Shown: one piece after another, positions 1,590 to 47,866 of the stretch
How positions within the stretch are numbered: position 1 is the stretch's first letter
How the letters are laid out: the number at the start of each line of letters is the position of its first letter
Source of the DNA: an uncultured delta proteobacterium
GTDB taxonomy: Bacteria > Myxococcota_A > Polyangia > Polyangiales > Polyangiaceae
Direction: 5' to 3'
Assembly: GCA_963716725.1 (NCBI GenBank)
Contig: CAVQUB010000006.1
Location: forward strand, 160,001-224,000
DNA length: 64,000 bases
Notes under the pieces: model-generated
The model's input: the letters and a program-made list of their open reading frames with translations, nothing else
Databases searched by the model: none
What the model was told of the DNA's origin: nothing
Program-made: the position numbers and the translations under genes

Positions 1590-1628
1590 CGGATTGTCCC
1601 TCGCCGCGAATCCAGGTGGGGGCGCCCC

Positions 1629-2441: not shown

Positions 2442-2581
2442 GGCGTTCTTGGAGGCCGAATCTTACGCGACCCGAGTCACCCGGCCGAAAAACCGGCAAG
2501 CCCCCCATCGCCTTGGTCGCAAAAACCCCTAGCTTCGTGATAAACGACCCGTGATAGGAACGAGGGAGAGGTTAGCGCGAC

Positions 2582-2806: not shown

Positions 2807-2834
2807 GCGCGACCCGAACGCGAGCGTCGTCCCG

Positions 2835-4421: not shown

Positions 4422-4465
4422 GACGCGAGGCGTGTTAGATGGTCGTCGCCGCGGAGGGAACCACC

Positions 4466-6127
4466 ATGACGCTGAAGACGCAGCTGGACTACGTGCAGAA
4501 GTGGGAGCGCGAGCGCCCGAACGACATCTGGTTCACCCAACCGCTGGGCAAGGGTGAGATCCGGGACCTCAGCTTCAAAGAGGCCCTCGACGAGGCTCGG
4601 CGGATGGCGGCCCACCTCCGCTCCCTCGATTTCCCCGCGCAGTCGAAGATCGCACTGTTCTCCAAGAATACCGCCTGGTGGATCCTCGCCGACATCGCGA
4701 TTTGGATGGCGGGCCACGTTTCGGTGCCGCTCTATCCCACGCTGACGGCGGAGACGATCCGTCAGATCCTCGAGCACAGCGAGGCAAAGCTGATCTTCAT
4801 CGGCAAGCTCGATGGCTTCACGGCCATGGAGCCGGGCATCCCCGACGGCATGCCGCGCATCACCCTGCCCCTCAGCCCCAAGCTCGAGGCACCGGCCTGG
4901 GCCAGCATCGTCGAGAAGACCGAGCCCCTCGCCGGCGAGATCCGCCGCGCCGAGACCGATCTGGCCACCATCGTCTACACCTCCGGCAGCACCGGCGTGC
5001 CCAAGGGCGTGATGCACAGCTTCCAGACCATGATCGCGCCGGGGGAGCGCTTCACGGAGTTCTTCGAGGTGCGAGCCGACGACCGCATGCTCTCCTACCT
5101 GCCCCTCGCCCACGCCTTCGAGCGCTACGTCGTCGAGACCGGCACCATCGGCCGCGGCTTCCACGTGTTCTTCGCCGAGAGCCTCGACACCTTCGTCGAC
5201 GACCTCAAGCGCGCGCGCCCCACGCTCTTCGTCAGCGTCCCGCGGCTGTGGCAGAAGTTCCAGCTCGGTGTCTTCTCGAAGATGCCGGAGCCCAAGCTGT
5301 CGTTCATGCTGAAGGTGCCGATTTTGAGCGGCATCATCAAGAAGAAGGTGCTCGGCGGCCTGGGCTTCGATCAGGTCCGCATCGCGGGCAGCGGCTCTGC
5401 GCCGATCCCGGCCGAACTCATCTCTTGGTACCGCTCGCTCGGGCTCGATTTGCTCGAAGGCTACGGCATGAGCGAGAACTTCAGCTACTCGCACATGACG
5501 CTTCCAGGCGACGTGCGCGTCGGCTACGTCGGCAAGGCCTGCGCCGGCGTCGAATGCAAGCTGAGCCCCGAGGGCGAGGTCTTGGTCAAGAGCCCGGGCA
5601 CCATGCTCGGCTACTTCAAGGCGCCCGATCTGACCGCCGAGATGTTCACCGAAGACGGCTTCCTCAAGACCGGTGACCGCGGAGAGCTCGACGCCGACGG
5701 TCGCCTCAAGATCACCGGTCGCGTGAAGGAGCTGTTCAAGACCAGCAAGGGCAAGTACGTCGCGCCGTCCCCCATCGAGAACAAGCTCCTGCTGCACTCC
5801 GACGTCGAGCAGGCGCTGGTGACGGGCAATGGCTTTCCGCAGCCCTACGGCCTGGTCGTCCTGAGCGAGCAGGCTCGGAAGCGGGTCCAAGACGACGCCG
5901 CGAAGGAGCAGCTCTCGGTCACGCTGAAGGGCCATCTCGACGAGGTCAACGCGAGCCTGGACCAACACGAGCAGCTCGATCTGCTCGTCGTGGTGAGTGA
6001 CGAGTGGACCATCGAGAATGGGCTGCTCACGCCGACCATGAAGCTCAAGCGCAGCGCCATCGAAACCAAGTACGGCGATCTCGCCCCGACCTGGTACGAC
6101 CAGAAGCAGCCCGTGGTCTGGGCCTGA
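4466..6127 (+). CDS. Long-chain fatty acid-CoA ligase (AMP-binding)
   Basis: YTSGSTGVPKG, EGYGMSE, KTGDRG, TPTMKLKR motifs. Confidence 0.92.
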   Translation: MTLKTQLDYVQKWERERPNDIWFTQPLGKGEIRDLSFKEALDEARRMAAHLRSLDFPAQSKIALFSKNTAWWILADIAIWMAGHVSVPLYPTLTAETIRQILEHSEAKLIFIGKLDGFTAMEPGIPDGMPRITLPLSPKLEAPAWASIVEKTEPLAGEIRRAETDLATIVYTSGSTGVPKGVMHSFQTMIAPGERFTEFFEVRADDRMLSYLPLAHAFERYVVETGTIGRGFHVFFAESLDTFVDDLKRARPTLFVSVPRLWQKFQLGVFSKMPEPKLSFMLKVPILSGIIKKKVLGGLGFDQVRIAGSGSAPIPAELISWYRSLGLDLLEGYGMSENFSYSHMTLPGDVRVGYVGKACAGVECKLSPEGEVLVKSPGTMLGYFKAPDLTAEMFTEDGFLKTGDRGELDADGRLKITGRVKELFKTSKGKYVAPSPIENKLLLHSDVEQALVTGNGFPQPYGLVVLSEQARKRVQDDAAKEQLSVTLKGHLDEVNASLDQHEQLDLLVVVSDEWTIENGLLTPTMKLKRSAIETKYGDLAPTWYDQKQPVVWA

Positions 6128-8388: not shown

Positions 8389-11658
<3,270 letters not shown>

Positions 11659-25044: not shown

Positions 25045-26925
25045 ATGGGCTCCCGAGAGCGGCTCGCATGGGTTCGCCACGCGGCGCCGATCGTGGTCTT
25101 GGTGCTCGCGGTCGTCGCGCTCGGGTTCGTGCCCCCGCGGCCGCACGGGACCATCACGCCGCTCGCGGATTGGCAATATCGACTCTCGGAGCCGGGCTCG
25201 CAGCTCGAACTCTCGGAGCCCTGGGCCAGCCCGCGCTTCGCGCCGCTGAAGCTGCCCGCGCATCCGGCTGGCTCCGGTGAAGTCCTGTGGCTGAGGACCC
25301 GCATCCCCCGGGAGCTGCCGCCGGACGCGGTCCTCGCCATCGACGCGGTGCTCGGCGCCTTCACCGCCTACGTCGGAAGCGATCGCGTGTTCGCGTTTCC
25401 GGAACCCGACGGCGTCGCGGCACGTGGATCGGTCGGACTGCCCTGGCAGCTCATTCCCCTCCCGGCGGGCTCCGAGGGCAAGACCCTGTCGCTCTGCATC
25501 TCCGCCCACTACCGCCCCCTGGGAGTGAAGGGCACGCCGCTGTTCGGCTCCCGCGCGGATCTCATGGCGTGGACCCTCGAGCGCGACCTGCCGCGGTTGG
25601 TGGTGGGGTTCGTGGCAATCTTGCTGGGCCTGCTCGGATTCGTGTCGTTCTCGACGCGCCAGGCGTGGCGTTTGCCGTTCAGCTTCGCGGTCTGGGCGGC
25701 GGCCCTCGGCGTCTACGTGATCCACTACACGCACTTGAAGGACTTGATCGCCGACGTGAGCGTCGTCTCGTTCTTCGCCTGGCTGCTCGCCTTGCCGGCC
25801 ATGGTCGTCGGATCGCTGCTCTTTCTCGACGAGCTCTTCGTGGCCCGTTCGAGCAAAGTGTTGCGTTGGCTCCTGCGCGCGAGCCTGCTGTTCACGCCCC
25901 TCTATCTGCTCGCGCTGACGCTCGCCTGGGTCCTCACGCAATCCACGGAGCACGCGGCGCTCGGGGTCAGCGTATTTGCCCTGGCCACGAATGCCGTTCG
26001 AATCGTGATTCTGGTCTCGTCGCTCCTGGTGCTGGTCGAGGCCTCGCGTTTCGCGAGCGCTGGGGATTTGGACGCGCGGATCTTCTTGGTGGGATTCGGG
26101 TTCTTGCTCGCGTTCGCCGTCCGCGACGTGATGGCAGCCTTCGGCACGGCCATGTTTTCGTGGCGCTCCCAGGTGCACGTCGGCGCGCTCGCTTGCGTGG
26201 TGGCCATGGCCATCTCGGTTCAGCGGCGATACGTCGCACTTCACGAGCGCGCCCGGCTTTTGGCTGAAGAAGCCGTCGCTCGCGGCAGAGAGCGAGATGC
26301 GCTGGTCCGCGACCTCCACGACGGAGTCGGCGCCATGACCAGCAACATCCGCATGCTCGCGGAGCTCGGGCAACGGAAGGCCGAACGCGCGCAGCCGGCG
26401 CTGGAGACCATCGCAGAGCTCTCCGAGAAGAGCCTCGCGGAGCTCCGAGCCTACGTGCACACGCTCGACGACGCCGAGGCGACCTGGGAGCGCCACGTCG
26501 CCGAGCTCCGGCGCTTCGGGGCGAGCTTGGTGGAAGCGCACGGTCGCGCCTTCGAGATGCAGGTCGACGTGGGCACGCAGGAGGCCCCGCCCATGCTGCT
26601 GGGCCTGCATTTGTTGCGAACCTTCAGCGAAGGCCTGACCAACGCGCTGAAGCGTTCAAACGGAAGCTACGTGAAGGTCGAGCTGAGCGTGCATCCCGAC
26701 GCGCTGTCGCTGTCGATGGAGAACGATGGGGACGGCGTCGCGGACGCGAGCCGCAGCATCGGGGGAGGTCGCGGCCTCGAGAACCTGCGCTCGCGCGCGG
26801 CGGAGCTCGGCGGTGAGTTCCGCATCGAGATCGGGAAGACCAATCGGCTGCTGCTCCGTGTGCCGTTGCCGCTCTCCAATCTTCCCGCGCTTGGCCGCGG
26901 GGCCGCGCTCAAGGGGACGGCGTGA
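25045..26925 (+). CDS. Multi-TM sensor histidine kinase (NarX/UhpB-type)
   Basis: Extracellular domain, about 7 TM helices, RDLHDGVG, EGLTNALK, NDGDG, GRGLENLRSRA. Confidence 0.88.
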   Translation: MGSRERLAWVRHAAPIVVLVLAVVALGFVPPRPHGTITPLADWQYRLSEPGSQLELSEPWASPRFAPLKLPAHPAGSGEVLWLRTRIPRELPPDAVLAIDAVLGAFTAYVGSDRVFAFPEPDGVAARGSVGLPWQLIPLPAGSEGKTLSLCISAHYRPLGVKGTPLFGSRADLMAWTLERDLPRLVVGFVAILLGLLGFVSFSTRQAWRLPFSFAVWAAALGVYVIHYTHLKDLIADVSVVSFFAWLLALPAMVVGSLLFLDELFVARSSKVLRWLLRASLLFTPLYLLALTLAWVLTQSTEHAALGVSVFALATNAVRIVILVSSLLVLVEASRFASAGDLDARIFLVGFGFLLAFAVRDVMAAFGTAMFSWRSQVHVGALACVVAMAISVQRRYVALHERARLLAEEAVARGRERDALVRDLHDGVGAMTSNIRMLAELGQRKAERAQPALETIAELSEKSLAELRAYVHTLDDAEATWERHVAELRRFGASLVEAHGRAFEMQVDVGTQEAPPMLLGLHLLRTFSEGLTNALKRSNGSYVKVELSVHPDALSLSMENDGDGVADASRSIGGGRGLENLRSRAAELGGEFRIEIGKTNRLLLRVPLPLSNLPALGRGAALKGTA

Positions 26926-29590
26926 GGGGCTGCCCCACCGCCGGCCACACGGAGCCATCGTAGTTGTAGGGGGGGTTGATCCCGTAGTCTCCAGTGTGCC
27001 GAAACGCCGTCAGTCGGTAGGGCGCCTTGGAGGCAACCTCGCTGGCCGGAAGCACCAGGGTGATGGAGTTGCCTGCAATGATGACGCGGGCAGCGCTGGT
27101 CGCAGGCTGGATGTTCCCGTTCAGGGCCGTCGACGTCTTCAGAGCCCACCCCGATGACGGGGCGTAGTTGGCCTCGTACCAGCGGTCCGTGTTCTTGAAC
27201 AGGTCGTCGGCGTATTGCGCGTTCGCCTGGTAGTTGTTGCCGGGGGTGTTGTCCGCGTCGAACACGAAGCCGTACTGGTAGCGGTTCAGGGCGTCCGCGA
27301 TGGGGATGGTCGCGTCGAGAGCCTTGCTGATCACGAGGATGTCGCCAGCCGGGACCGGCGGAGCGCCCGGTGCGCAGAGCGTTGTGCCGTTCGGACCGGC
27401 GCCGCAGGGGAACGCTCCCCCGCTACCGAATACGACGTCGAGCTGGGTGGCGGTGAACGTTTGGCGCAGGGAAGTCCGGCCGTAGAGCGTCGTGTGGTCG
27501 TGGGCGACGGGCTTCGCGGCAATGGTGGCCTTCGAATGTTTGAACAGCTTCTCCTGGAACAGGAACCACGCCGCACACTGGGTGGCCTTCGACCAGCCAC
27601 CCAGCATGCTGCCAATCAGCAGCACCGCCGCGGTCTTCGGGTCGGATTCGCAGGCGACGCCTCCATCGGGGCCGCCCTCGCTCCCGGCGTCGAGGCCGCC
27701 GTCGCCGCAGTCGCCGACAGTGACTTGAGCCGTGCCGCCGTAGGCGAAGGGATGTGCAAAGACGCGGAACGAGTAGGTCGTCGTGCCGGGGCTGGCCCCG
27801 CGAAGTCGGAGGTTCGCCTTCTGATTGGCGTTGTCGAAGATGAGCGTGTTCCACCCGTCGGCATCCTCGGAGCCCGACGCGACGACGGCGATGGCCTTGT
27901 CGAGAGTGTTCGCCTTGCCGGTCATCAGCTTGGTGATCGGCGTCGCCCCCGGCCAACTGACCGGCACGACCACCTCGTCGCCGGGACAAGGGATGCTCAC
28001 GGCATCCAGTGGGACCTGCTTTGGAACCGGGTCGAGACAGACGATTTGGGGCTTCGGATCGACCACGTCGCTGTCGTCTTGCACGATGGTCCACTCCCCG
28101 GCCTCTTTGAGGCTGACCGCTCCGCTCTTGTCGGTGTCCGCCGTCGTGTCGCGCCAACACTCACGCAGCGCTGCGCTGAAGTACGAGCTCATGTTGACCT
28201 CGCCCTCGTAGTTCAGGCCTGCGCCGGACTCGCTGGCGTCGTCGGCGGCCGTGATGGCAGTTCCCGTGAGTCCTTCACCTTGGAAAGCGGAAATCAGTGC
28301 GCCCGAGTAGCAGGCGTCGATGATGGGGTTGACCTCGATGTCGGTGCCCGCGAAGCGACTCGTGACCATCTCTCCAAGCGTCTCCAGGAGCAGCGTGGTC
28401 TTGCCGCCCGTGCCGTCAGAGATCTTGTCGAGACCGCTGATTCCACCGTGGGAGGTCAGGTAGAAATAGATGGTCTGACAGCCGTCGGCCTTCGCCGCGT
28501 CGAGCAGCGCGGCGATTTGGCTCGGCGTCGGTGGCGTCAGGAGACCCTGCGCCGTGCGCTGGGCGAAGACCTTGATGCTGCGCTGCTTGAAGAAGGCCTC
28601 CATCAGCTCGGCGTCCCGGCGCAAGAATCTGTCGGGCAGCCCGTAGACGATCACGGCGCAGGCCTTGCCGCCCGGGCTCGGCTTGGTGTTCTGCGCGTGA
28701 GAACCCGGGCTCAGGCTCTGGGAGGAGGCCGTGCTCGATGCGGCCTCGGCGCTCGCGCCGAAGTCGTGGGTGCGCCAGGCGGAGATGAGGGCGGTGGTGG
28801 GCGCACCAGCGGACAGAGCGAGCTCGGGCCAGTAGCGCGCGCTGACTTCCTCCGGGAGCGCGCCGGCTTGGGTGGCGTCCACCAAGATCATGCGCGTGGC
28901 ATGCTCGTACTTGCTCTGCGGTGCTTCGTCGACCCAGGCGAACCAAGAGTCCTTCTGGACCGAGAGCGTCGAGGTCGGAGTGCCCGCAGAGTTGTCGGCC
29001 GTGACGCTGGCACCTGCCGGCAAGAGCACCGGCCCGTGCAAGAGCTTCCCGCTGCCGGAGGGCGCGTGCTTGGCCTCGAGCTGGCAACGAAGCGATTCGC
29101 CGCTCACCATCGGCTTCGTCGTCGTCAAGCTGATACCGAAGCTCGCCGCGGCGGCAGACTGCTCGAGCAGGGCATCTACCAGGAATACGCCCGCGCTTCC
29201 GGTCACGCCCAAGCGCGCGGTCGCGACGCCCTGCGCGTTGGTGCTCACCCGAGCCGTCGCCGCGCCGTACTTCGAGGGCACCTCGAAGCTGCCTCCCGGC
29301 GAGCTCTCCGGGGCGACGAACAACACCACCGCTCCCACGAGCGGCGCCCCGGCGGCGTCCCGGGCGGTCACCGTGAGCTCGGTGATCTCGCCGTCACCGA
29401 GCAGCCGCGTCGCCGCACACTCGGGGATCTCGAGGGTCGCGCCGGCGGGGGGCTTCGGAGCGGACTTCTTGGCCGTGCCCGAGTCGCCGGAGCAGGCCAC
29501 GAGGATCGCGCCAGCAGCGGCCAGGCACAGCAGGCATACGAACAGCAAGTCGACCCGACGACGCCGAAGGAGGGCGGCCAATTGCTTCAT
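26909..29590 (-). CDS. Large lipoprotein with Ig-like and caspase/legumain-fold (clan CD) peptidase domains
   Basis: Lipobox LVAC; TNAQGVA Ig-like motif; FYLTSHGG and IIDACYSG catalytic-dyad motifs. Confidence 0.75.
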   Translation of the reverse strand: MKQLAALLRRRRVDLLFVCLLCLAAAGAILVACSGDSGTAKKSAPKPPAGATLEIPECAATRLLGDGEITELTVTARDAAGAPLVGAVVLFVAPESSPGGSFEVPSKYGAATARVSTNAQGVATARLGVTGSAGVFLVDALLEQSAAAASFGISLTTTKPMVSGESLRCQLEAKHAPSGSGKLLHGPVLLPAGASVTADNSAGTPTSTLSVQKDSWFAWVDEAPQSKYEHATRMILVDATQAGALPEEVSARYWPELALSAGAPTTALISAWRTHDFGASAEAASSTASSQSLSPGSHAQNTKPSPGGKACAVIVYGLPDRFLRRDAELMEAFFKQRSIKVFAQRTAQGLLTPPTPSQIAALLDAAKADGCQTIYFYLTSHGGISGLDKISDGTGGKTTLLLETLGEMVTSRFAGTDIEVNPIIDACYSGALISAFQGEGLTGTAITAADDASESGAGLNYEGEVNMSSYFSAALRECWRDTTADTDKSGAVSLKEAGEWTIVQDDSDVVDPKPQIVCLDPVPKQVPLDAVSIPCPGDEVVVPVSWPGATPITKLMTGKANTLDKAIAVVASGSEDADGWNTLIFDNANQKANLRLRGASPGTTTYSFRVFAHPFAYGGTAQVTVGDCGDGGLDAGSEGGPDGGVACESDPKTAAVLLIGSMLGGWSKATQCAAWFLFQEKLFKHSKATIAAKPVAHDHTTLYGRTSLRQTFTATQLDVVFGSGGAFPCGAGPNGTTLCAPGAPPVPAGDILVISKALDATIPIADALNRYQYGFVFDADNTPGNNYQANAQYADDLFKNTDRWYEANYAPSSGWALKTSTALNGNIQPATSAARVIIAGNSITLVLPASEVASKAPYRLTAFRHTGDYGINPPYNYDGSVWPAVGQPLTPSP

Positions 29591-29703
29591 GCCACGATTG
29601 TCGGCGAACGCCGCCAGCCTCGCCAGGGAGCTGGTTGGGGGTTTTTGGGGGAGGTTGCCCAGGGCCGTGGTGTCCGCCGCGAGCGACGGCTAGATTACTC
29701 GTC

Positions 29704-31375: not shown

Positions 31376-31840
31376 CTAGCGCGCCGGCTCGATCCGATCC
31401 GCGTTGACCGTCTCGTCCCAGGCGGTCTCGTAACCCTCGTAGTGCACCAGGTAACGATCGGGTCCGGCGACGGCCACGATGGTCGCGATGTACTTCGACT
31501 CGCGCCACTTCACGCGCACGCGATCACCCGGCTTGTAGGGGGACGCGCCGGACGCAGGACCCGAGCCTTTGGGCGCGACCCCGCTGGCGCGCGCGACCTT
31601 CTCGGGCGGCGGCGGCGGGGCGACCGGACTGCTGATCCGCCCCTTGATGCGATCGAGGATCACGTCCTCGTCCCAGCGCGCGTCGAAGCCGTCGAAGTGA
31701 ACACGAAACCGCGCCGCGCCCTTCTTCTCGACGATGTACGCGGGGTAGTCCCGGCCCTCCCACTCGACCCACACGTACTCCCCGACTCGGTAAGGCTCCG
31801 TGCAGGCAGTGAGCAGGAGCGCGAGTACGAGCCAACGCAT
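31376..31840 (-). CDS. Lipoprotein with two Tudor-knot/chromo-barrel-like domains
   Basis: LTAC lipobox; two repeats containing VHFDGFDARWDE and VHYEGYETAWDE. Confidence 0.8.
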   Translation of the reverse strand: MRWLVLALLLTACTEPYRVGEYVWVEWEGRDYPAYIVEKKGAARFRVHFDGFDARWDEDVILDRIKGRISSPVAPPPPPEKVARASGVAPKGSGPASGASPYKPGDRVRVKWRESKYIATIVAVAGPDRYLVHYEGYETAWDETVNADRIEPAR

Positions 31841-31849
31841 TTCGAAGCT

Positions 31850-38720: not shown

Positions 38721-38722
38721 AT

Positions 38723-38796
38723 CGGGGCGTAGCGCAGTTTGGTAGCGCGCACGGTTCGGGTCCGTGAGGTCGGCAGTTCGAATCTGCCCGCCCCGA
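38723..38796 (+). tRNA. tRNA-Pro(CGG), copy 1
   Basis: Acceptor stem cggggcg/cgccccg, anticodon arm cacgg-TTCGGGT-ccgtg, T-loop gttcgaatc; CCA not encoded. Confidence 0.95.
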
Positions 38797-38831
38797 CAAA
38801 ACCTGGGTTAAACGTCGAAGGGGAGGGAACC

Positions 38832-39019: not shown

Positions 39020-40270
39020 TCAGCGCCGAGTCAACCCCGGACGGAACGAACGCTTGGAGCTGCGACGACGATATCGTCGCCACGCGAGCCACGCGCCGAC
39101 TGCGGGTAGCAGCGCCGCGGCGAGGATCACGACCCGCGCGAGAGGCAGGCGCGCCTGAGGGAGCGAGGCGCACGCCAGCTCGAAGCTCAGAAACCAGACC
39201 AAGCCGGCGATGAGCGCAGGCGCGAGGAGGAGCAAGGCCAGCTGTATCACGGTCCCTGGAACCCTCAGGAAGGTCTCGATTCCGAAGCGAAGCAGCCCTT
39301 CCCTCGAGAACGCCGTGAGCACGTCCACCACGGCCCTCGGTCCCGATTGCCCGCGCGGAAATGCGAGATGAACTTCATCCCAGCGGTCCGGTGAGAGCTT
39401 CGCCTTGAAGGCCCTGAGCCCGTGAAAATCGTAGAGTTCACTCGATGCGTCCCGGATGGCTCGGAGCCACCCGCTCACGTCGCCCGACAGCGGCGCGAGA
39501 CCGAGCGTGGCATAGGCAGCGTTCTCCTCGGCGACTGCCCGGAGCGCATGGTCGATGACCAACTCGACCGTTCCGTTGGGTGCGGTCGGATCCCGCAAGA
39601 AATCCTCCAAGAGCCAGCCGTTGCGCGCGTACACCGGGACCATGCCGAGAAACGCGACGATGCGCCCGTCTTGCTCGGCGACGAAGTAGCGGTGCTCCGC
39701 CACGAAGTGAAACGGGTGCACAGCCACGAGGAAGCCCATCGGCGCGAGAGTGAGCCTACTGCTCCAACGCTCGATGAGTCTCTCGATGTCACGCCGTCGA
39801 CTCCCGGGCGCGTCGCTGGTCTCGATGGCGTCCAGCCGTCGGACTTCTACTCCCTTGGCCCGGGCTCTCCTCAGCTGTTCGCGCAGACTCTTGGAGACAG
39901 GCCGCGAATCGGCCACTCGCCGCGGGTCCCAGACCGGCTGCTCCCCGATCAGCATCGACGCGAAGTCCACGCTTCGTAGAAAGCGGGGCTCGACGCCGAA
40001 GAAACACGCGCGTCGCCCGGCGTCGCGTGCCGCGCGTACGAATCGGCTCGCGCACATGGCCAAGCACTCCTCGGCGGCGATGGGCGCGCCGGCTGCGACC
40101 CAGGCCCCACCCGTGTCCACGTAGGCCACCGCGCCGCTCTGGTCGAACCAGTAGCAAAACCCTGGCTCTAGCACCTGAAACGAGGTCGCGTTCCAGCCGT
40201 GCGCGCGCAGCCGGTCGAGCACCTTGGCACGCTCTGGCTCGCGTTCCAGCGCAATCTCGGACTGGACCAC
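39020..40270 (-). CDS. DUF2156 / MprF-type aminoacyl-phosphatidylglycerol synthase domain protein
   Basis: WVAAGAP, LREQLRRARAKGV, GWLLEDFLRDPTAPNGTVE, LGLAPL, LYDFHGLRAFKAK; short C-terminal TM region. Confidence 0.85.
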   Translation of the reverse strand: MVQSEIALEREPERAKVLDRLRAHGWNATSFQVLEPGFCYWFDQSGAVAYVDTGGAWVAAGAPIAAEECLAMCASRFVRAARDAGRRACFFGVEPRFLRSVDFASMLIGEQPVWDPRRVADSRPVSKSLREQLRRARAKGVEVRRLDAIETSDAPGSRRRDIERLIERWSSRLTLAPMGFLVAVHPFHFVAEHRYFVAEQDGRIVAFLGMVPVYARNGWLLEDFLRDPTAPNGTVELVIDHALRAVAEENAAYATLGLAPLSGDVSGWLRAIRDASSELYDFHGLRAFKAKLSPDRWDEVHLAFPRGQSGPRAVVDVLTAFSREGLLRFGIETFLRVPGTVIQLALLLLAPALIAGLVWFLSFELACASLPQARLPLARVVILAAALLPAVGAWLAWRRYRRRSSKRSFRPGLTRR

Positions 40271-40485
40271 TGGGCAGAGCTATACCGCAAGCGGAGAGCT
40301 GTCCACCCCCCGCTCAGCGCCCGGGAATATCGCTGAACTCGAAGGTCACCCGAACCTCCCGCCCGCCCGCGGTGCGCGTCTTCTCCGCTGTCGAGCGCGG
40401 AGTGCGAGTCTCGGGCACCCGCTCGGACGTTCAACGTCATGCCTGCTTGACGCGCTCGCGCGCGCGAAGTTCGCTTCGCTCGCCC

Positions 40486-41325
40486 ATGGCCAGCAGGAAG
40501 AAGGAGGAGCCGATCCCGCTCACCGAAGCCTTGGTGTCCGAGGTCGAAGCTCGGGTTCGCGCGGCGCGCTTCGTTGCGAACAGGCAACTCGTGGGCCGCA
40601 TGCTGTCGCGGCACGACGAGCTGCTGCTGATCGAAAAGCTCGTGACGCGCGGGCTCGAGCGGACGCCGAAGGGTCTGCGCGCGCCCCTCGCGGACCAAGT
40701 CGCAGCCGCGGTCGCGGGCACGAGCCCCATCCCGCTCTCCGCCCTCCCGAAGTGCGTGAGCGGCTCCACCGCAGCTGAGGTCAAACGCACGGCGCTTCAG
40801 CTCGTCGATGCGGGCAGCCTCGCGTTGGTCGCGGGCTCGCGCGTGGACGCAATCACGGTGAAGGGAGCGCACCTGCTCGATCCCGACGAGGTGGCCGCGA
40901 TCCGGGATTTGAGCAAGCGCTTGACCAAACTCGTCGCGCGGCTGCGCTCGCGAAAGGGAACTCCATCGAAGACCCTGGCGCGATCCGAGGCGCAAACCCT
41001 GTTCGGGCCCGTGCTGGAGATGCTGGCCGCGCCCAACGCCGCCGCGGGGATTGCGACCGCGCGCGTCCTCGAAACCTTGGCCGAACTCGAACGGTCGCGC
41101 GGTCGCTCCGTGTTCGTCCCGGATCTGGTTCGTGCGCTGGGAACGACGCAGGCGCCTGCGCCCGCCCACCAGGCGCTGCTCGCGCTCGCCCGCGCGGGCC
41201 GGGTGGAGCTTCGCCCCGAGAGCGGCGTCGGAGCGCTGTCGCCGGCGGATCGCGCGCTGTGCCCGGCCGACGCCCAAGGCCTCGTGATTTCTTATGCCCG
41301 GGTGATTTCGGGAGAGACCGCATGA
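40486..41325 (+). CDS. Hypothetical protein with probable C-terminal winged-helix-like domain (operon gene 1)
   Basis: 279 aa; VFVPDLVRAL...HQALLALARAGRVELRP; stop overlaps next start (ATGA). Confidence 0.7.
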   Translation: MASRKKEEPIPLTEALVSEVEARVRAARFVANRQLVGRMLSRHDELLLIEKLVTRGLERTPKGLRAPLADQVAAAVAGTSPIPLSALPKCVSGSTAAEVKRTALQLVDAGSLALVAGSRVDAITVKGAHLLDPDEVAAIRDLSKRLTKLVARLRSRKGTPSKTLARSEAQTLFGPVLEMLAAPNAAAGIATARVLETLAELERSRGRSVFVPDLVRALGTTQAPAPAHQALLALARAGRVELRPESGVGALSPADRALCPADAQGLVISYARVISGETA

Positions 41326-43337
41326 GGGGCCCCTTCGACTTTGAACACGCCGATCCCTGGGGCAGCGACGTCGTCGATGTCGCGTCGCTCAACGCCCACG
41401 TGAGCGACGCTATCCTCTCACGGATCGAGGCCGTGCGCCGCGCAGCTCCGCTCGGTCCGGCGGAGCTGCGGTCGAGCACACTCTTGGCGTTGGGTCCGGC
41501 GGGGTCCGGCAAGACCCACCTCTTCGTGCGGGTGCGCCGCCGGTTGGGACCGCGTGCGGCCTTCGTGCTCGTTCGCCCCGAGATCGGCATCGAAGCGACG
41601 CCCCGGCACGTCCTCACCCAGATCGTCGACTCGCTGCAACACGCTGCCTCGGGCACCACGGACCGACAGTTGGATGTGATCGCAGCGTCCATGCTCGCGG
41701 CGGTGTCGGGAGAGCGGATCGGACCACACGTGTTGCTGGAGCAGCTCCGCCAACGGGACGAACGGCTGCGCGAAGATCTGATTGAGCGGGTCACCGCTCA
41801 CCTCGAGGGCTTGTACTCCGAGGTTTGGCCCGACTACCTGGAGCGCCTCCTCCGCGCACCGTTCTTGCCGGCACCCGACCGCAGGGCCGCCAACGCCTGG
41901 CTCGCCGGGCGCGAGTTGAACGACGTGCAGCTCAGCCGCCTCGGCGGTGGAGCGAGCCTCACCGACTCGGACGTCCTGCCGGCGCTACGAACACTGGCCA
42001 TCGTCGCCGCGCACGGCGCTCCCATCGTGCTCGTGTTCGACCAACTCGAGAACCTGGTCACCGCGGATCGGCAGTCTTCCCGGATCTCGGCGCATGGCAA
42101 CCTGGTGAGTGAGCTGCACGACACCGTCCGCGGCCTGGTCGTGGTCCAGCTCGCCCTCGACGCCGAGTGGGATCGCAACATCCGCCCAAAGCTGGCGGCT
42201 TCCCATCGCTCGCGCGTCGAAGCCAAGCTCCTCGAGCTCTCGCTCCCGACGCCGGATCAGCGCGAAGAGCTGGTGCGCGTGTGGCTCGCTCGCCTCCCGT
42301 CGGTGGATCCGCAAGAACCGTTCCCCTGGCCGTTCACCAGGGCGCAGCTCGAGGCCTGGCGCGCTGCCACCGTGATGACACCACGCATGCTGATGATCGC
42401 GTGCCGCGAGGGCTTCGAGCCGGCGCTTCGTCCGATCAACACGGCGATCTCGGCAGCAGCGGCCCCGGCCTCCGCCGGCGTCAATGTCGGTGATCGCCTG
42501 GCTGATCTCTGGGCGCTGCACCTCGAGCGCGCACGCAACGAGCTCCAGTCCGTCGCCGCCGAGGGCCGCGGCACCGATGCGGAGCGCCTGGCGAGCGCGC
42601 TGGTCGTCGCGGCGGATCTCGCCGAACTCGACCCGTCGACCACCACCGACCGGATCACGCGCACGGTCCGGCTGGGCAAGTCGGACCGCGAAATTCGCCT
42701 GGTACAGCACGCCCATCCTCGCTCTGTCGCCGCGGCGCTCCAGCACACTCTGGCGCTCCAGCACCCCACTCGCGCGGTCGTCCTTCGTGAACACGACCTG
42801 GCGTTCCCACCGACGTGGATCAAGGTCCTCGAGCATTCGCACGAGCTGACCACGCACGGTGTCCCGCTGATCTGGCTCGCCTTCGATGATGCGGCGCGAC
42901 TCGTCGCGCTCCACGACTTTCTCGCGGCGGGACGCTCCCAAGATCTCGCTGGTCCTGACGGGCGCCCGCTCGACTTCGCGACGGTAGAAGGTTGGGTGAA
43001 AGGCAGCGTCGATTGGCAGAGCTGGCCCGTGGTGCGATCGGTCGTGCTCGGGATTGCCGACGACGACGTGGATCTGGATCGCGCGCGTGCGCCCGAAGCT
43101 GCCGCAGCTCCGCTGCGGGTGCCGGACGCAGACTCCGGGTCCGGTGCGCGTCCGGGCCCCTCCCTGGCCGTGCTTCGTCGCCTGCGCGTCGCGAGTGTCG
43201 CGCGGATACTGCGCGAAGTGCGCCGCGTCGACGCGCGTGCCACCGCCACGAGCGTGGCCCATGAGCTGAGGCAGGCAGGTCCGGCAGTGCGCTGGTACGG
43301 TCGACGCTTGTGCGCCCTCACGGAGCGTGAGCCGTGA
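41322..43337 (+). CDS. AAA+-type P-loop ATPase with uncharacterised C-terminal half (operon gene 2)
   Basis: Walker A GPAGSGKT, Walker B IVLVFDQLE, sensor-II-like TPRML. Confidence 0.85.
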   Translation: MRGPFDFEHADPWGSDVVDVASLNAHVSDAILSRIEAVRRAAPLGPAELRSSTLLALGPAGSGKTHLFVRVRRRLGPRAAFVLVRPEIGIEATPRHVLTQIVDSLQHAASGTTDRQLDVIAASMLAAVSGERIGPHVLLEQLRQRDERLREDLIERVTAHLEGLYSEVWPDYLERLLRAPFLPAPDRRAANAWLAGRELNDVQLSRLGGGASLTDSDVLPALRTLAIVAAHGAPIVLVFDQLENLVTADRQSSRISAHGNLVSELHDTVRGLVVVQLALDAEWDRNIRPKLAASHRSRVEAKLLELSLPTPDQREELVRVWLARLPSVDPQEPFPWPFTRAQLEAWRAATVMTPRMLMIACREGFEPALRPINTAISAAAAPASAGVNVGDRLADLWALHLERARNELQSVAAEGRGTDAERLASALVVAADLAELDPSTTTDRITRTVRLGKSDREIRLVQHAHPRSVAAALQHTLALQHPTRAVVLREHDLAFPPTWIKVLEHSHELTTHGVPLIWLAFDDAARLVALHDFLAAGRSQDLAGPDGRPLDFATVEGWVKGSVDWQSWPVVRSVVLGIADDDVDLDRARAPEAAAAPLRVPDADSGSGARPGPSLAVLRRLRVASVARILREVRRVDARATATSVAHELRQAGPAVRWYGRRLCALTEREP

Positions 43338-45319
43338 CCGCGCTGACGGTCACCGAGGTCCGCAACGCGCTGCGGTGCCCGCGGGTCTTCGCCCTGGGGC
43401 GGCGCTTCTCGAAGCGGGTGGTCTTTCCGGTCGGCTCCTCCGCGCTCGGCTCGGCCTTCCACCGCATCGCCGATCGCTTCGCCACCAGCACGTCACACCT
43501 GCCGAAGCGCTTCGGAGCCCTGCTCACCTCCGCGCCGGTGGATGAGATCAGCGACGCGCTCTGCGGGGTGTTGCTCCGTCATCTCGTCGACGAGCTCGAC
43601 CGGACTCCCGCCTACGCGTCGATGCCCGCCGAGGTGGACGATCTCGCGGAGGCCCTTCGCTCGTACGCGGGCTACCTCGCGCAACGGATCGCGCGCCGGC
43701 CGGGCGACCTGGCCGAGGTGCTTCGGCGGTTCTTGCACGACGCGGAGGTCTCGGTGCGCTGCGAGCTGTCGACGTCGGCGGGGCCGGTGGAGCTCTCGGG
43801 TCGGATCGACGCGATCCATGCGCCCGACGAGCACTCGTACGAGGTCGTGGAATACAAGCTCACCGACGAGTCGACGGAGGAGCTCGACCGGGCTCAGGTC
43901 GCGCTCTACCGGCACATGCTCCAGCAGGACAAAGCGGCAGTGCCGATCATCCTGCGCTTCGGACCGGGGCTCGTGACCACGCGACTCGAGCCCCAGGCGG
44001 CGGACGCCTGGGTCGAACGCGAGCTACTGCCCCTGCTCGGAGCCATGGTGACCTGGGTGGCGAGCCCGGAGCGCGCGCCGGCGACGAAGCGCACCGACCT
44101 GTGTCCTGCCTGCCCGCTCCGCGCCGAGTGCGTCGCCCTCTATCGCGACGCCGTTCCACCTCGCGACGATCCGCCCGCGAACGCCTGTCGTCCCCGACCC
44201 AGCCCGCAAGGCGAGGTCGCGTTGCCGGATCGGGACCAGCGAGGCTCTCCACCCAGCAGGCGCCCGGCGGCAGATCCGTCAGCGCTCGCGGAGGCCACTC
44301 GCCTCGTCGATCTGGTCGTCCGCCTCTACGCTGATCAAGGTGTCGCGGCCGCCGTGCGCAAGACCCCGCGCGTGGGCTCGCGCCTCATCCGCATCGAGCT
44401 GACCGCTAGCCGCGGGAGCATCAGGGATCTCGACCGTGGAAGCGCCGACGTGCTCCACCATCTGGAAGCCGATCACGCCGTCCGGGCGAGCTACGGTCCC
44501 GAAGGAGCGCGACGGGTGATCGACGCGCAGCGCTCGGCGCCGAGCACGGTGCGCCTGGCGCCGCTACTCGAGCGGTGCCGGGAGTGGCTGCGGGCTCGTC
44601 CGGGCCGCTTCATTTTGGGTGAAGACGTCGATGGCGAGCCGCTGCGCGCCGATTTGGGCGAGCCCACCGCGTGTCACCTGCTGATCGGCGGCACGACGGG
44701 GAGCGGGAAGTCCGTCTTGCTCAAGTCGATAGCCGCTGGCCTCGCCGAATACCAACCCCCAGCGGCGATCCAACTCACCCTGATCGATCCGAAGCGCGTG
44801 ACGTTCACCGGCGTCGAGGCCGCGCTCGGCGGCCACCTGGCCCGTCCCGTGTGCTTCGACGCGAACGAGACGGTCGCGATACTCCACGACCTCGTCACCG
44901 AGATGGAGGACCGTTACGAACGCTTCGCTGCGCTGCGCGTCGAGACCATCGATGACCACAATGCGGCATCCGCCCCGTGCGACGTCCTTCCCCGACACGT
45001 GCTGATCATCGACGAGTTCCAGGATCTGCTCGCTACCAAGGAGACCAAGGAGGACTTCCTGGGCTCCGTGCAGCGTCTCGGCGCGAAGGCGCGCGCGGCC
45101 GGCATCCACCTAGTACTCGCGACCCAGCACCCCGATCGAAAGACCGTGCCCGCCGCCATCAAGGTCAACCTGACAGGCAAGGTCGCGCTCAAGGTGCACC
45201 AGGCCACGGATTCGCTCGTGGTGTTGGGCGCGCGCGGGGCAGAGACGCTGCTGGGCAACGGCGATCTGCTCGCGGATCTGGGCCGAGGGATCGTGCGTGC
45301 GCAGGGCCCACTGCCCTGA
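43334..45319 (+). CDS. PD-(D/E)XK (RecB/Cas4/AddB-like) nuclease fused to FtsK/SpoIIIE-type ATPase (operon gene 3)
   Basis: RCP, GSAFH, GRID, VVEYK, QVALY, CPACPLRAEC; then HLLIGGTTGSGKS, IDPK, IIDEFQDL, ARAAGIHLVLATQHP, GAETLLGNGD. Confidence 0.9.
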   Translation: MTALTVTEVRNALRCPRVFALGRRFSKRVVFPVGSSALGSAFHRIADRFATSTSHLPKRFGALLTSAPVDEISDALCGVLLRHLVDELDRTPAYASMPAEVDDLAEALRSYAGYLAQRIARRPGDLAEVLRRFLHDAEVSVRCELSTSAGPVELSGRIDAIHAPDEHSYEVVEYKLTDESTEELDRAQVALYRHMLQQDKAAVPIILRFGPGLVTTRLEPQAADAWVERELLPLLGAMVTWVASPERAPATKRTDLCPACPLRAECVALYRDAVPPRDDPPANACRPRPSPQGEVALPDRDQRGSPPSRRPAADPSALAEATRLVDLVVRLYADQGVAAAVRKTPRVGSRLIRIELTASRGSIRDLDRGSADVLHHLEADHAVRASYGPEGARRVIDAQRSAPSTVRLAPLLERCREWLRARPGRFILGEDVDGEPLRADLGEPTACHLLIGGTTGSGKSVLLKSIAAGLAEYQPPAAIQLTLIDPKRVTFTGVEAALGGHLARPVCFDANETVAILHDLVTEMEDRYERFAALRVETIDDHNAASAPCDVLPRHVLIIDEFQDLLATKETKEDFLGSVQRLGAKARAAGIHLVLATQHPDRKTVPAAIKVNLTGKVALKVHQATDSLVVLGARGAETLLGNGDLLADLGRGIVRAQGPLP

Positions 45320-45390: not shown

Positions 45391-45969
45391 ATGGTCCTCG
45401 GCGCGCCCCACCACCGGCACACGTTTCGCGACTACCTCCATGTCGAGGAGATGAGTGCGGTCAAGCACGAGTATTTGGCGGGAGAGATCTTCGCCATGGC
45501 CGGGGGCACACCGGAGCATGCCGCTCTCAGCGCCGCGTTCCTGACGCTCCTCGGTCCGCAACTGCTCGGCAGCAAGTGCCGTTCCTACTCGGCCGACCTT
45601 CGCCTCCGCGTTCCCGCCACCGGGCTCGCGACCTACCCCGATGCCGCCATCGTCTGCGGCGATCTCGAGCTCGATCCCGAATCTTCAACCCACGTCACCA
45701 ACCCCAAGGTTGTCGTCGAAGTGCTCAGCCCGAGCACGGAGGAGTACGACCGCGGCGAGAAGCGTGAGCACTACCAGCGCCTCGCTTCGCTCGCACAGTA
45801 CGTGCTGGTCGCACAAACGCGGGTGAGAGTCGAGGTTTTCTCCCTCGCCGACGACGGATCATGGACGCATACCGTCCATTTTGCGGGGGAGCTCGTGGAG
45901 CTTCGGTCAGTGGGGTGTCGCTTCGCTGTCGACGATCTCTACGCCGCTGCCGGTGTGCGCCTCGACTGA
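45391..45969 (+). CDS. Uma2 family (DUF820) endonuclease
   Basis: KHEYLAGEIFAMAGGTPEH, YPDAAIVC, VVEVLSPSTEEYDRGEK..Y. Confidence 0.92.
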   Translation: MVLGAPHHRHTFRDYLHVEEMSAVKHEYLAGEIFAMAGGTPEHAALSAAFLTLLGPQLLGSKCRSYSADLRLRVPATGLATYPDAAIVCGDLELDPESSTHVTNPKVVVEVLSPSTEEYDRGEKREHYQRLASLAQYVLVAQTRVRVEVFSLADDGSWTHTVHFAGELVELRSVGCRFAVDDLYAAAGVRLD

Positions 45970-46039: not shown

Positions 46040-46357
46040 GTGCCCGACGCTTTCCTCCGACTGCTGCTGCTGCTCAGCGAAATACCGGTGGCACCCCAGC
46101 GCATCGATACCTGCACGCTCGCGCAGCGACTCGAAGCCCAGGGGGTCCGCGTGACGCGCCGCACCCTACAGCGCGATCTGGAGCGACTCTCGCGCCAGCT
46201 CCCGTTGACCCGCCACGACGACGCCAAGCCCTACGCTTGGGCCTGGCTCGAGTCCGACCTGCGGCCGGGCCGCGGCAAGCAGACGGAGACCCTGCGGGAG
46301 GTGGCGGCCCGCGCGGCCTCACACATCAGGCGGTCGAGCGGCTGTTCGCCCGACTGA
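46040..46357 (+). CDS. Stand-alone winged-HTH similar to the N-terminus of the adjacent WYL protein
   Basis: TLAQRLEAQGVRVTRRTLQRDLERLS...KPYAWAW versus TLQRRLEEEGITVTARSVQRDLERLS...KPYQWSW. Confidence 0.7.
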   Translation: MPDAFLRLLLLLSEIPVAPQRIDTCTLAQRLEAQGVRVTRRTLQRDLERLSRQLPLTRHDDAKPYAWAWLESDLRPGRGKQTETLREVAARAASHIRRSSGCSPD

Positions 46358-46403
46358 TGCCCGTCCTGTCCCAACCACGCGGACATCGCCTAAGGTCGGT
46401 GGC

Positions 46404-47462
46404 GTGCCTCGTTCCGGATCCGACGTCGAGACGCTCCACCGCCTCTGGTCGTTGCTCCGCCACGTGCCGCGGTCACCGCGGCGGGCCGACACGGTGACGC
46501 TGCAGCGCCGGCTCGAAGAAGAAGGCATCACCGTCACGGCGCGCAGTGTGCAGCGCGATCTCGAGCGGCTCTCGGCGCGATTCATCACCCTGCAGTGCGA
46601 TCGACGGTCGAAGCCCTACCAGTGGTCGTGGGACGGCGACGCGCCGCTGGTCGAGATCCCCGGCATGGGCGTGCCGGCGGCGGTGACCTTCGAGCTGGTG
46701 CGCGCCCACCTGCACGACGCCCTGCCCCGATCGACGCTGGCGAGCCTGGAGCCGCACTTCGCCCGTGCGCGAGAGGTGCTCGCTCGGCACACGAGCACGC
46801 CCCTTGCGCGTTGGCTCGCGAAGGTGCGAGTCGTCCCCCGCGGCTACCCGCTCGCCCCGCCCAACGTGCCGCCTCACGTGCTCGACGTGGTCTACGGCGC
46901 GTTGCTCGAAGAGCGCCGCTTCCGAGCCTTGTACAAGAAACACGGGGCGAAGGAGGAAAAGGAGTACGTCGTCAGCCCGCTGGGCCTGGCCGCCCGCAAC
47001 GGCATCCTGAGCCTGGTGTGCACGTTCTGGGACTACGACAACGTGAACCACATGCTGCTCCATCGCATGCAGCGGGCCGAGCTCCTCGACGAGCCGCTGC
47101 ACCGACCCCGCGGCTTCGATCTCGACGCGCACCTCGCGAAAGGCGGCGTCGGCTTCGCGCGCGGCGAGCCCATCCGCCTGCGCGCTCGCGCCCACTACGA
47201 CGTCGCCGTCGTGCTGCGCGAGACGCCCATGGGCAAGGACCAATCCCTGTCGCCCGACGACGAGCAGCACGAGCTGCTCGAAGTGACGGTGCCCGACACC
47301 ATGGAACTTCGCGGCTGGCTGCTCAGCTACGGCCCGATGATCGAGGTCCTCGAGCCTGCCGCGCTGCGCGAGGACTTGGTCCGGACCATCACGATGACGG
47401 CAGAGACCTATGCCAATCCCAGGGCCAAGCCGGCACGGACCGCCCGCAAGCCGCGCCCCTAG
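46404..47462 (+). CDS. wHTH-WYL-WCX transcriptional regulator
   Basis: N-terminal HTH (RSVQRDL), WYL-type VVSPLGL..LSLVC..LHRM, WCX-type GWLLSYGPMIEVLEPAALRE. Confidence 0.92.
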   Translation: MPRSGSDVETLHRLWSLLRHVPRSPRRADTVTLQRRLEEEGITVTARSVQRDLERLSARFITLQCDRRSKPYQWSWDGDAPLVEIPGMGVPAAVTFELVRAHLHDALPRSTLASLEPHFARAREVLARHTSTPLARWLAKVRVVPRGYPLAPPNVPPHVLDVVYGALLEERRFRALYKKHGAKEEKEYVVSPLGLAARNGILSLVCTFWDYDNVNHMLLHRMQRAELLDEPLHRPRGFDLDAHLAKGGVGFARGEPIRLRARAHYDVAVVLRETPMGKDQSLSPDDEQHELLEVTVPDTMELRGWLLSYGPMIEVLEPAALREDLVRTITMTAETYANPRAKPARTARKPRP

Positions 47463-47539: not shown

Positions 47540-47570
47540 CGCGCGCCCTTCCGGTTCTGGCCGGAGGTTT

Positions 47571-47644
47571 CGGGGCGTAGCGCAGTTTGGTAGCGCGCAC
47601 GGTTCGGGTCCGTGAGGTCGGCAGTTCGAATCTGCCCGCCCCGA
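47571..47644 (+). tRNA. tRNA-Pro(CGG), copy 2
   Basis: Identical to 38723-38796. Confidence 0.95.
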
Positions 47645-47866
47645 CAAAACCCCGAGTTGAGCGTCGCGGGACACGGCAGCGAGTTCCGACGACGGTTAGC
47701 TCGTTACCACTCTGTTGCCAGTTGCTGCGCCGAGCCTGCCGACGGCGTCGTGCCACAATATTGCCACCCACGCCGCCTCGGAACTCGGGAGCTGTTTCCC
47801 GCGGTTCCGGCCCCCCCGCCCGGGCCCGCTCATGCTACGCTTCCCGATCGGCCTCCGGAGCCCCAC

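Follow-up and report, generated by a model that had tools for sequence, protein, structure and literature searches.

A putative Orc/Cdc6-coupled HerA/FtsK capture cassette with a nuclease-FtsK fusion protein in an uncultured member of Polyangiaceae

A cassette of three genes, named here A, B and C, was studied in a 64,000-nucleotide stretch of DNA (hereafter, the window) of an uncultured delta proteobacterium of the family Polyangiaceae, phylum Myxococcota_A (GenBank assembly GCA_963716725.1, contig CAVQUB010000006.1, positions 160,001–224,000 of the forward strand). Gene C encodes a single chain in which a nuclease-like domain precedes an FtsK-type motor. Judging from its sequence and that of its partners, gene C is probably the effector of an accessory 'Orc/Cdc6-coupled HerA/FtsK capture' cassette, and the class to which such cassettes belong is predicted to restrict invading DNA. 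The cassette is a clean and well-conserved new case of this predicted class and is not categorically new. To our knowledge, FtsK-type pumps are known for moving DNA and not for destroying it. If the proposed reading is true, a soluble FtsK ring with a nuclease on each subunit and an ORC-like ATPase as a partner would represent a mechanistically distinct way of intercepting foreign DNA. The class has so far been predicted from genomes, and the 661-aa version described here, with its confident model and clear catalytic residues, offers a practical entry point to it.

Domain architecture of the gene C protein

Gene C is an open reading frame (ORF) at positions 43334–45319 (+) that starts with GTG and remains open over 661 aa. 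The third-position GC content of this frame is 0.85, like that of neighbouring real genes. An earlier note on this DNA, made from the sequence alone, had described the product as an Fe-S RecB/Cas4-type nuclease fused to a soluble FtsK-type motor, and every motif that it named was found at its place when the translation was checked. The nuclease motifs are RCP (residues 14–16, including Cys15), GRID (156–159), EYK (173–175), QVALY (188–192) and CPACPLRAEC (257–266). The motor motifs are Walker A GTTGSGKS (453–460), Walker B VLIIDE (556–561), ATQ (596–598) and GDLL (643–646), the last being followed by the stop codon after 15 residues. A domain architecture search using Pfam placed two domains in one chain, namely PDDEXK_1 at residues 4–266 (profile positions 2–246 of 247, E 1.1e-18, score 68.5 bits where the cut-off is 22), and FtsK_SpoIIIE at residues 412–600 (E 8.6e-30, above the curated cut-off). 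This set of motifs and domains is far beyond chance.

Modeling of the full-length protein using AlphaFold2 was based on an alignment of 44 homologues and led to a model with a mean predicted local distance difference test score (pLDDT) of 86.5, unstructured only at residues 278–307 (pLDDT <50). The length and sequence of this linker vary across the same alignment. When residues 1–277 were modelled alone, the pLDDT was 92.2 and the predicted template modelling score (pTM) was 0.89. A sequence-profile search of the PDB with the nuclease domain had revealed nothing significant (Cas4, 4ic1, only with E 0.22), and a fold search was needed. The closest structural matches of the nuclease model were AdnA (Z 15.9, root-mean-square deviation (rmsd) 3.6, 226 residues aligned), AddB (Z 15.0) and Dna2 (Z 13.9), followed by ACE1 (Z 13.8), Cas4 SSO0001 (Z 13.3) and Exo5 (Z 12.8), while the cluster-less RecB (Z 9.3) and lambda exonuclease (Z 8.0) ranked lower. 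According to the model, residues 1–277 are a Cas4/AddB/AdnA-like PD-(D/E)XK nuclease, and a nuclease fold is thereby predicted for the first ~270 residues, the absence of which would have spoken against the earlier description.

The residues C15, C257, C260, C266, D159, E173, K175, Q188 and Y192 are invariant in the 44 homologues, which are 46–81% identical to gene C. In a 31-sequence alignment that included nine distant relatives, with nuclease regions 16–28% identical to that of the window protein, the four cysteines, K175, Q188 and Y192 were again invariant, and D159 and E173 were conserved in at least 90% of the sequences. In AdnA, AddB, Dna2, Cas4 and Exo5 at least, a [4Fe-4S] cluster is held by one N-terminal cysteine and a C-x2-C-x5-C element. 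The one-plus-three cysteine pattern noted earlier is present in gene C, and together with the fold it suggests that the protein may bind such a cluster. Besides the fold (Z 12.8–15.9) and the cysteines, gene C has the D...ExK and QxxxY motifs in common with AddB, AdnA, Dna2, Cas4 and Exo5; unlike in these enzymes, the motor partner of its nuclease is an FtsK-type ring translocase and not a superfamily 1 helicase.

The nuclease does not qualify as Cas4 proper. Both Cas4 models scored gene C below their cut-offs (TIGR00372, 31.8 bits against 65; PF01930, 14.2 bits against 22.7), and no Cas protein family was found among the Pfam matches of 22 neighbouring frames at 26.9–58.3 kb, a scan in which CRISPR repeats were not searched for.

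Residues 307–661 of the model superposed on chain residues 322–696 of the Pseudomonas aeruginosa FtsK structure 2iut_A with Z 38.5 and rmsd 3.8 over 344 aligned residues (VIA), covering both the alpha and beta domains, and the motor superposed on that of E. coli FtsK as well. Foldseek returned 2ius_D with E 1.2e-28 and 6t8b_D with TMt 0.78 (0.72–0.78 over the ten best FtsK chains). Other structural matches of the motor were TcpA (Z 29.6), EccC (Z ~28), the C-terminal domain of DndH (7es4, Z 21.3) and HerA (Z ~20). The identity to cellular FtsK motors was 27–32% (27–31% by Foldseek, 28–32% by VIA). The Walker A residues, K459, D560/E561, the arginine finger R587 and the sensor glutamine Q598 are invariant in the 44 homologues. 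As modelled, residues 308–661 are an FtsK alpha+beta motor. The model PF17854, which we take to be that of the FtsK alpha domain, was listed for 2 of the 120 gene C homologues described below.

The earlier note had also seen a complete FtsK core with neither a transmembrane (TM) anchor nor a gamma domain, and this was borne out by two observations. No TM segment was found in gene C, the highest 19-residue Kyte–Doolittle mean being 1.22, and the FtsK superposition runs to the last residue of the protein and leaves no gamma domain. By contrast, an Oceanobacillus FtsK/SpoIIIE frame extends ~105 codons past the matched motor. Gene C resembles cellular FtsK/SpoIIIE proteins in its alpha+beta motor and in the KARAAGIH...ATQ.P motif, and differs from them in having no membrane anchor, long linker or gamma domain, a winged helix that reads the FtsK-orienting polar sequences (KOPS) or SRS, and in carrying an N-terminal nuclease instead. 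The NCBIfam FtsK equivalog model gave gene C 120 bits against a cut-off of 1566, and the plasmid_TraB model matched it with E 8.2e-8, far under its cut-off. PADLOC profiles matched the motor with the C-terminus of SspH (E 4.2e-58, profile positions 1477–1751 of 1766) and with mad8, and only FtsK/SpoIIIE-like families were found among PHROGs. A canonical FtsK-like frame of 872 codons is located on contig 9 of the same genome, so gene C is not the division FtsK, in agreement with the earlier note.

A word-based homologue search with gene C found 495 proteins at E<=1e-3 among 8000 candidates scored. All 120 of the homologues listed from these 495 are 625–723 aa long and contain both PF12705 and PF01580, and the named ones among the 120 come from Myxococcota assemblies. 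An exhaustive search added full-length relatives at 29–36% overall identity, including those from a Bacillota metagenome-assembled genome and Candidatus Magnetomorum. The linker is crossed without differences by contigs of the sequencing runs X2 (record 7, 44005–44400) and X6 (record 21, 43803–44380), which belong to two studies, that of X2 possibly being the source of the window itself; those of the runs X1 and X5 do not cover the window throughout. Since the architecture is common to the listed homologues and the linker is spanned by contigs of two studies, the fusion is real, and the assembly artefact that the earlier note had allowed for does not account for it.

The A-B-C operon and fusions of gene B to the motor

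Genes A, B and C lie on one strand in overlapping frames. The frame of gene A ends at 41325 and that of gene B starts at 41322 (ATGA), and gene B ends at 43337 while gene C starts at 43334. Judged by these overlaps, the three genes are in all appearance translationally coupled. Upstream of gene A, no sigma-70-like site was found and terminator-like sites were no commoner than in shuffled sequences, which is uninformative for such organisms.

Just 22 homologues of gene A were found, at 26–64% identity, and they have a conserved C-terminal motif, ELRPESG...LCP...SY.R. No match to gene A was obtained with Pfam, PADLOC or PHROGs; a 'MarR family' cluster of the Atlas (score 0.91) is a lead only. 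Gene B contains Walker A GPAGSGKT (residues 58–65) and Walker B VLVFDQ (236–241) motifs and has a conserved C-terminal half. Two of its 185 homologues are named Cdc6-like or Orc1-like by the sources. Pfam analysis of 32 members of the gene B family (E<=0.01) revealed AAA_22 in all 32, AAA_16 in 31 and BrxC_BrxD in four. Sequence-profile searches of the PDB with genes A and B gave matches only at the P-loop level or by chance, those of gene B at the P-loop level being Cdc48 and ORC4 (E 0.05–0.08). Gene B had no match among PHROGs, and neither A nor B matched DndF/G or SspF/G in PADLOC.

The gene order was examined in nine loci, comprising six Myxococcota loci (L001–L005 and L011), the locus of the congeneric genome G275 and two distant metagenome loci (L016 and L067). 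A tblastn search revealed the order A-B-C in all six Myxococcota loci, gene A being cut by the contig end in L001. The same order was found in G275, with identities of 63%, 76% and 80% for A, B and C, respectively. In L016 and L067, the B–C pair is kept (gene B matches with E 3.3e-12 and 2.2e-18, respectively) and an upstream ORF of 254 or 303 aa occupies the position of gene A; it is recognised by the gene A profile in L067 (E 1.6e-6) and not in L016. The metagenome scan with distant relatives mostly returned generic FtsK motors, and full-length proteins were found only in L016, L067 and L019, the last of which is too short to show neighbours.

To evaluate how the domains are combined elsewhere, the 150 best representatives of the exhaustive search were scanned with profiles of gene B and of the gene C nuclease. 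Chains of at least 550 aa with the nuclease and FtsK accounted for 61 of them, and five were single chains of 1190–1258 aa with B, nuclease and FtsK. Another 17 were fusions of B and FtsK of 951–1083 aa with no Cas4-like match, nine were nuclease-bearing fragments, and 58 belonged to neither kind. In total, 22 of these 150 proteins (5 + 17) join gene B to the FtsK motor, which is strong evidence that B and the motor act as one machine. The word 'self-contained', which the earlier note had applied to the translocase-nuclease, does not stand, because gene C is the third gene of a conserved overlapping operon and its partner B recurs in one chain with a motor of this kind. In the published prediction for the class, too, the nuclease-FtsK component works together with an Orc/Cdc6 ATPase and wHTH proteins (PMC10853773).

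The C-x2-C-x5-C element is carried by 33 of the 66 nuclease–FtsK chains, and 30 of these 33 have Cys-Pro at the domain start in the region searched. In the remaining 33, among them all five B fusions, the match is confined to profile positions ~36–243 and both cysteine elements are absent. Related chains in this half thus differ from the known [4Fe-4S] nucleases in having no Cys triad. As a separate observation, the chains of ~1000 aa that combine a B-like ATPase with FtsK (P0137, P0211, P0232, P0181, P0272 and 12 others) have no detectable Cas4-like nuclease.

A quick FastTree analysis of 139 motor domains placed the window protein in a well-supported clade of 19, which includes 11 chains of the Fe-S type, seven fragments and one B+FtsK fusion. 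A neighbouring clade contains 29 cluster-less and B-fused forms. Support for the split that sets the cellular FtsK references apart is weak (78), so no claim is made about the origin of the motor.

The distribution of the cassette was estimated with the nuclease domain as a query (E<=1e-10; counts include the genome G000). Matches were obtained for 7 of the 301 phylum genomes and for 5 of the 23 family genomes. One of the two other genomes of the genus, G275, has a match and the other, G125 (98% complete), has none. The cassette is accessory and patchy. In the window, it lies in an 8.8-kb segment bracketed by two 82-nt direct repeats that are 100% identical and spaced 8848 bp apart, and the segment carries, in order, an LPG_synthase_C-like gene, genes A, B and C, a Uma2 endonuclease gene and a WYL/WCX regulator gene. 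Each repeat includes a tRNA-Pro gene, and the tRNA-Pro pair is located after electron transfer flavoprotein (ETF) genes in both congeners too. The inter-tRNA segment of G125 is ~1.4 kb long and contains a fasciclin gene; that of G275 is ~6.4 kb long and contains PurT, fasciclin, YkuD, AIG2-like and deacetylase-like genes. Since the same tRNA pair has different spacing and genes in the congeners, the inter-tRNA segment is a variable cargo site in the genus. In G275, the A-B-C genes and a WYL gene are located ~115 kb away, among different genes. In addition, the cassettes of L005 and of L011 each have a tRNA-Phe gene within ~1.5 kb.

Relation to known systems and alternative explanations

'HerA/FtsK capture' systems were described by comparative genomics in 'mobile gene neighborhoods' (PMC10853773; NAR 2024;52:1005). 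According to that description, they combine an Orc/CDC6 AAA+ ATPase, with an inactive restriction endonuclease (REase) domain inserted before a terminal winged helix-turn-helix (wHTH), an active REase from one of two families, wHTH domains, and a HerA/FtsK domain, one set having an FtsK-alpha domain 'captured' from cellular FtsK (PMC10853773). A subset includes a fast-evolving protein that has 2–4 wHTH domains, like DndG; the components may share one chain or be spread over several, and their predicted role is the interception of invader DNA (PMC10853773). The prediction is restated in a later paper of the same line of work (PMC12839542, NAR 2026). In the main text of PMC10853773, there are 0 occurrences each of Cas4, RecB, Fe-S and Myxococc-.

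The cassette of the window resembles these systems in having an AAA+ ATPase that may be of the Orc/Cdc6 kind, a REase-fold domain predicted to be active, an FtsK-alpha domain with a motor and a fast-evolving small protein, as well as in the variously split or fused domains of its relatives and in its mobile, patchy neighbourhood. Gene C in particular shows a HerA/FtsK-clade P-loop with the sensor-1 glutamine (Q598) and an upstream arginine finger (R587), an FtsK-alpha domain N-terminal to the motor, and a PD-(D/E)XK domain with D159, E173 and K175. The cassette appears to fit the published description, in which the clade of B, an inactive REase insert and the wHTH domains of A would be predicted features only.

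A comparison with DndH and SspH of the phosphorothioate-linked restriction systems DndFGH and SspFGH indicated a C-terminal FtsK-type motor as the only part common to gene C, and the three-gene logic is similar, a large nuclease-translocase being accompanied by an ATP-binding protein and a small one (PMC10853773, PMC8092258). Defence by SspFGH was shown experimentally, and the C-terminus of SspH resembles FtsK (PMC8092258). Unlike these proteins of ~1700 aa, gene C has 661 aa, contains no SNF2-C domain, target recognition domain or inactive methylase, and has a nuclease of the Cas4/AddB type. Membership in DndFGH/SspFGH was rejected, as only the last ~275 positions of SspH are matched and neither A nor B matched a Dnd or Ssp model. 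The HerA–NurA, HerA–Sir2 and HerA–DUF4297 complexes also combine a HerA/FtsK-superfamily ring translocase and an effector such as a nuclease (structural matches at Z 16–21); in gene C, however, the nuclease is covalently tethered to the motor subunit, and the motor belongs to the FtsK clade with an alpha domain, where HerA has a HAS barrel.

All these likenesses allow us to propose, with a little more confidence than doubt, a joint reading in which a ring of gene C proteins pumps double-stranded DNA, the tethered nucleases cut it, B and A select the target and the WYL protein regulates the whole. The motor would assemble as a ring, like FtsK, and the several tethered nucleases would cut the DNA fed past them. 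Gene B could serve as an ATP-dependent switch or loader and gene A as a rapidly evolving DNA-recognition subunit, the two choosing the DNA that is engaged. A [4Fe-4S] cluster would steady the DNA-binding wedge of the nuclease, as in AddB and Cas4, and in this genus the adjacent WYL regulator may repress the operon until a signal of DNA damage or infection arrives. Neighbours with a defence flavour, namely Uma2 (PDC-S03), the WYL regulator and SNF2 helicases like ZorD/DpdE, are found beside the cassette here or in related loci.

A number of observations weigh against this proposal. The defence role of the cassette is a prediction, and literature searches turned up no experimental study of the HerA/FtsK capture class. 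PADLOC recognised only the motor (SspH C-terminus, mad8) and, weakly, the nuclease (Cas4), and no whole system. The window's own gene B scores below the curated Pfam cut-offs, and hhalign comparison of the gene B profile with the gene C nuclease profile gave a probability of 0.2, a value that a divergent REase fold could also give. No modification gene or other self/non-self component that would account for the sparing of host DNA was seen. No integrase was seen among the Pfam matches of the frames of the segment. In addition, ordinary genes (asparaginase, deacetylase, Usp, GGDEF, peptidase M16, AcrB) flank several related loci, and the inter-tRNA segments of the congeners carry ordinary cargo.

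A more specific form of the capture reading can be offered only tentatively. The four-cysteine subfamily would be a modification-independent DNA-destroying machine, in which an FtsK ring with one tethered Fe-S nuclease per subunit is loaded or licensed on foreign DNA by the ORC-like AAA+ protein and the fast-evolving subunit and shreds it processively. Since the cysteine pattern is present in 33 of the 66 chains and missing from 33, the Fe-S cluster would be an add-on that alters substrate handling or regulation, for example by sensing DNA ends or redox state. A comparison with the cluster-less sister group could reveal the contribution of the Fe-S cluster to nucleases of this family.

Among the alternatives, a machine for DNA repair or end resection, a single-chain analogue of HerA–NurA, AddAB or AdnAB acting at host double-strand breaks and loaded or regulated by B and A, is unlikely; in its favour, the nearest nuclease folds (AdnA, AddB and Dna2) are those of end-resection enzymes. 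HerA–NurA likewise pairs a ring translocase with a nuclease (PMC12977600), HerA being among the PDB matches of the motor, and in G275 a few kb separate the cassette from RecC_C- and RecB-like genes. Responses to DNA damage, too, are under the control of WYL regulators, which counts for the same explanation. A repair function is at odds with the patchy distribution even within the genus and family, with the different genomic positions in congeners and with the fast evolution of gene A, a trait that fits conflict systems better than housekeeping repair. Still more doubtful is a function in the life of a mobile element, that is, a DNA-transfer, segregation or addiction module like the FtsK-like TraB/TcpA on an island that uses tRNA landing sites. 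The structural match to the TcpA coupling protein and the faint plasmid_TraB match would agree with it, as would the flanking tRNA genes here, the tRNA-Phe gene near the cassette in two other loci and the term 'mobile gene neighborhoods' itself (PMC10853773). However, no integrase, relaxase, replication or other transfer gene was found in the 8.8-kb segment or scanned flanks, none of the 25 candidate viral stretches was confirmed (0/25), gene C has no membrane anchor, and an intact nuclease fused to a pump fits the destruction of DNA better than its delivery.

That gene C works alone, with A and B as unrelated neighbours, is improbable. All catalytic motifs of both activities are indeed present in one chain; on the other hand, the operon is conserved in 9 of the 9 loci examined, its reading frames overlap and B recurs in fusion with the motor. 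The explanation to which we give least credence, hardly any at all, is that of a second FtsK for cell division or chromosome segregation, or else of an assembly artefact. The identity of the motor to cellular FtsK motors and the retained alpha domain are what a second FtsK would show. It would not be expected to have neither TM segment nor gamma domain, to score so far below the equivalog cut-off or to coexist with a canonical FtsK in the genome, and an artefact does not agree with an architecture repeated in 120 listed homologues from many assemblies or with a linker bridged without differences by contigs of two studies.

Neighbouring genes and other observations

The features of the inter-tRNA segment are listed in Table 1.

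Table 1. Features of the inter-tRNA segment of the window and of the domains of gene C
Feature	Position	Strand	Description
Left 82-nt direct repeat	38722..38803	+	Includes whole tRNA-Pro(CGG), 38723–38797; ARAGORN, repeat search (family D1), alignment
LPG_synthase_C-like gene	39020..40279	-	Pfam PF09924, E 1.1e-29; divergent neighbour in the inter-tRNA segment
Gene A	40486..41325	+	279 aa; fast-evolving, no family match; candidate multi-wHTH DNA-binding or specificity subunit
Gene B	41322..43337	+	671 aa; AAA+ P-loop ATPase of the AAA_16/AAA_22 (putatively Orc1/Cdc6-like) kind
Gene C, nuclease (residues 1–277)	43334..44164	+	PD-(D/E)XK, AddB/AdnA/Dna2/Cas4 type; Cys15 + Cys257-x2-Cys260-x5-Cys266, putative [4Fe-4S]; predicted catalytic D159, E173 and K175 with Q188/Y192
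Gene C, linker (residues 278–307)	44165..44254	+	Pro/Arg-rich, predicted disordered, between nuclease and motor
Gene C, motor (residues 308–661 and stop)	44255..45319	+	FtsK alpha (~308–400) and beta/RecA-like (~401–661) domains; no TM segment, no gamma domain
Uma2-family putative endonuclease	45391..45969	+	Pfam PF05685, E 5.2e-32; PADLOC candidate PDC-S03 (single-gene defence), E 1.1e-19; directly 3' of gene C
WYL+WCX regulator	46209..47462	+	Pfam WYL, E 1.6e-10, and WCX, E 1e-14; PADLOC WYL (CRISPR-associated WYL models), E 2.4e-26
Right 82-nt direct repeat	47570..47651	+	Includes whole tRNA-Pro(CGG), 47571–47645; ARAGORN, repeat search, alignment

The LPG_synthase_C-like gene has no homologue in G125 or G275 at E<=1e-20 and no PADLOC match, and it is probably cargo outside the system. 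The Uma2 gene is missing between gene C and the WYL gene in G275 and gave no tblastn match in L001–L005 or L011 at E<=1e-4. By this comparison it appears as a neighbour and not as a conserved part of the cassette. A partial Uma2 ORF was observed in L004 (15486–15953), ~6.5 kb downstream of gene C (Pfam E 7.1e-11).

The WYL gene probably starts later than 46209, for example, at the GTG at 46404. In G275, a WYL gene is again located directly downstream of gene C in a different genomic context, and no WYL gene was found beside the cassette in L001–L005 or L011. Its product is a candidate transcriptional regulator of the cassette in this genus. G275 has WYL/WCX paralogues with 56–59% identity at three places (C1, 1440359–1441513; C2, 2447279–2448307; C2, 121815–122930), one of which directly follows gene C, and the same genome has a short N-terminal fragment, WYL-like, immediately upstream of gene A.

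An SNF2-family helicase gene adjoins the cassette in three of the six Myxococcota loci (L003:1311–4784, -; L011:1328–3943, +; L004:3–4856, -). Identity is 47% over 830 aa between the L003 and L011 helicases and 30% for the L004 copy, and the L011 copy resembles ZorD, DpdE and DrmD in PADLOC. The SNF2 helicase may be an optional fourth component; as a core one it was rejected, as it adjoins the cassette only in these three loci and the 64-kb window has none.

In the G275 locus L096 (C1, 1432000–1451900), RecC_C-domain and RecB-like (UvrD + PDDEXK_1) genes are located at 1–4547, a few kb past the WYL gene found downstream of the cassette. The proximity could be a coincidence or a hint of a link with DNA-end processing. 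In L067, an R2K-clade ATP-grasp gene (9758–10639; Pfam R2K_3, E 1e-13) overlaps the end of the nuclease–FtsK gene.

Two other frames of the window were noted. A 926-aa open frame on the opposite strand (26909–29689, -) has a coding-type third-position GC content of 0.86 and no Pfam match at E<=0.001. A 157-aa ORF (31376–31849, -) matched Tudor-knot (PF11717, E 5.4e-12) and a chromodomain-like model (PF22732, E 6.3e-8, above the cut-off), with weak matches to MBT and Tudor_3. Tudor-knot, chromodomain-like, MBT and Tudor domains are best known from eukaryotic chromatin proteins.

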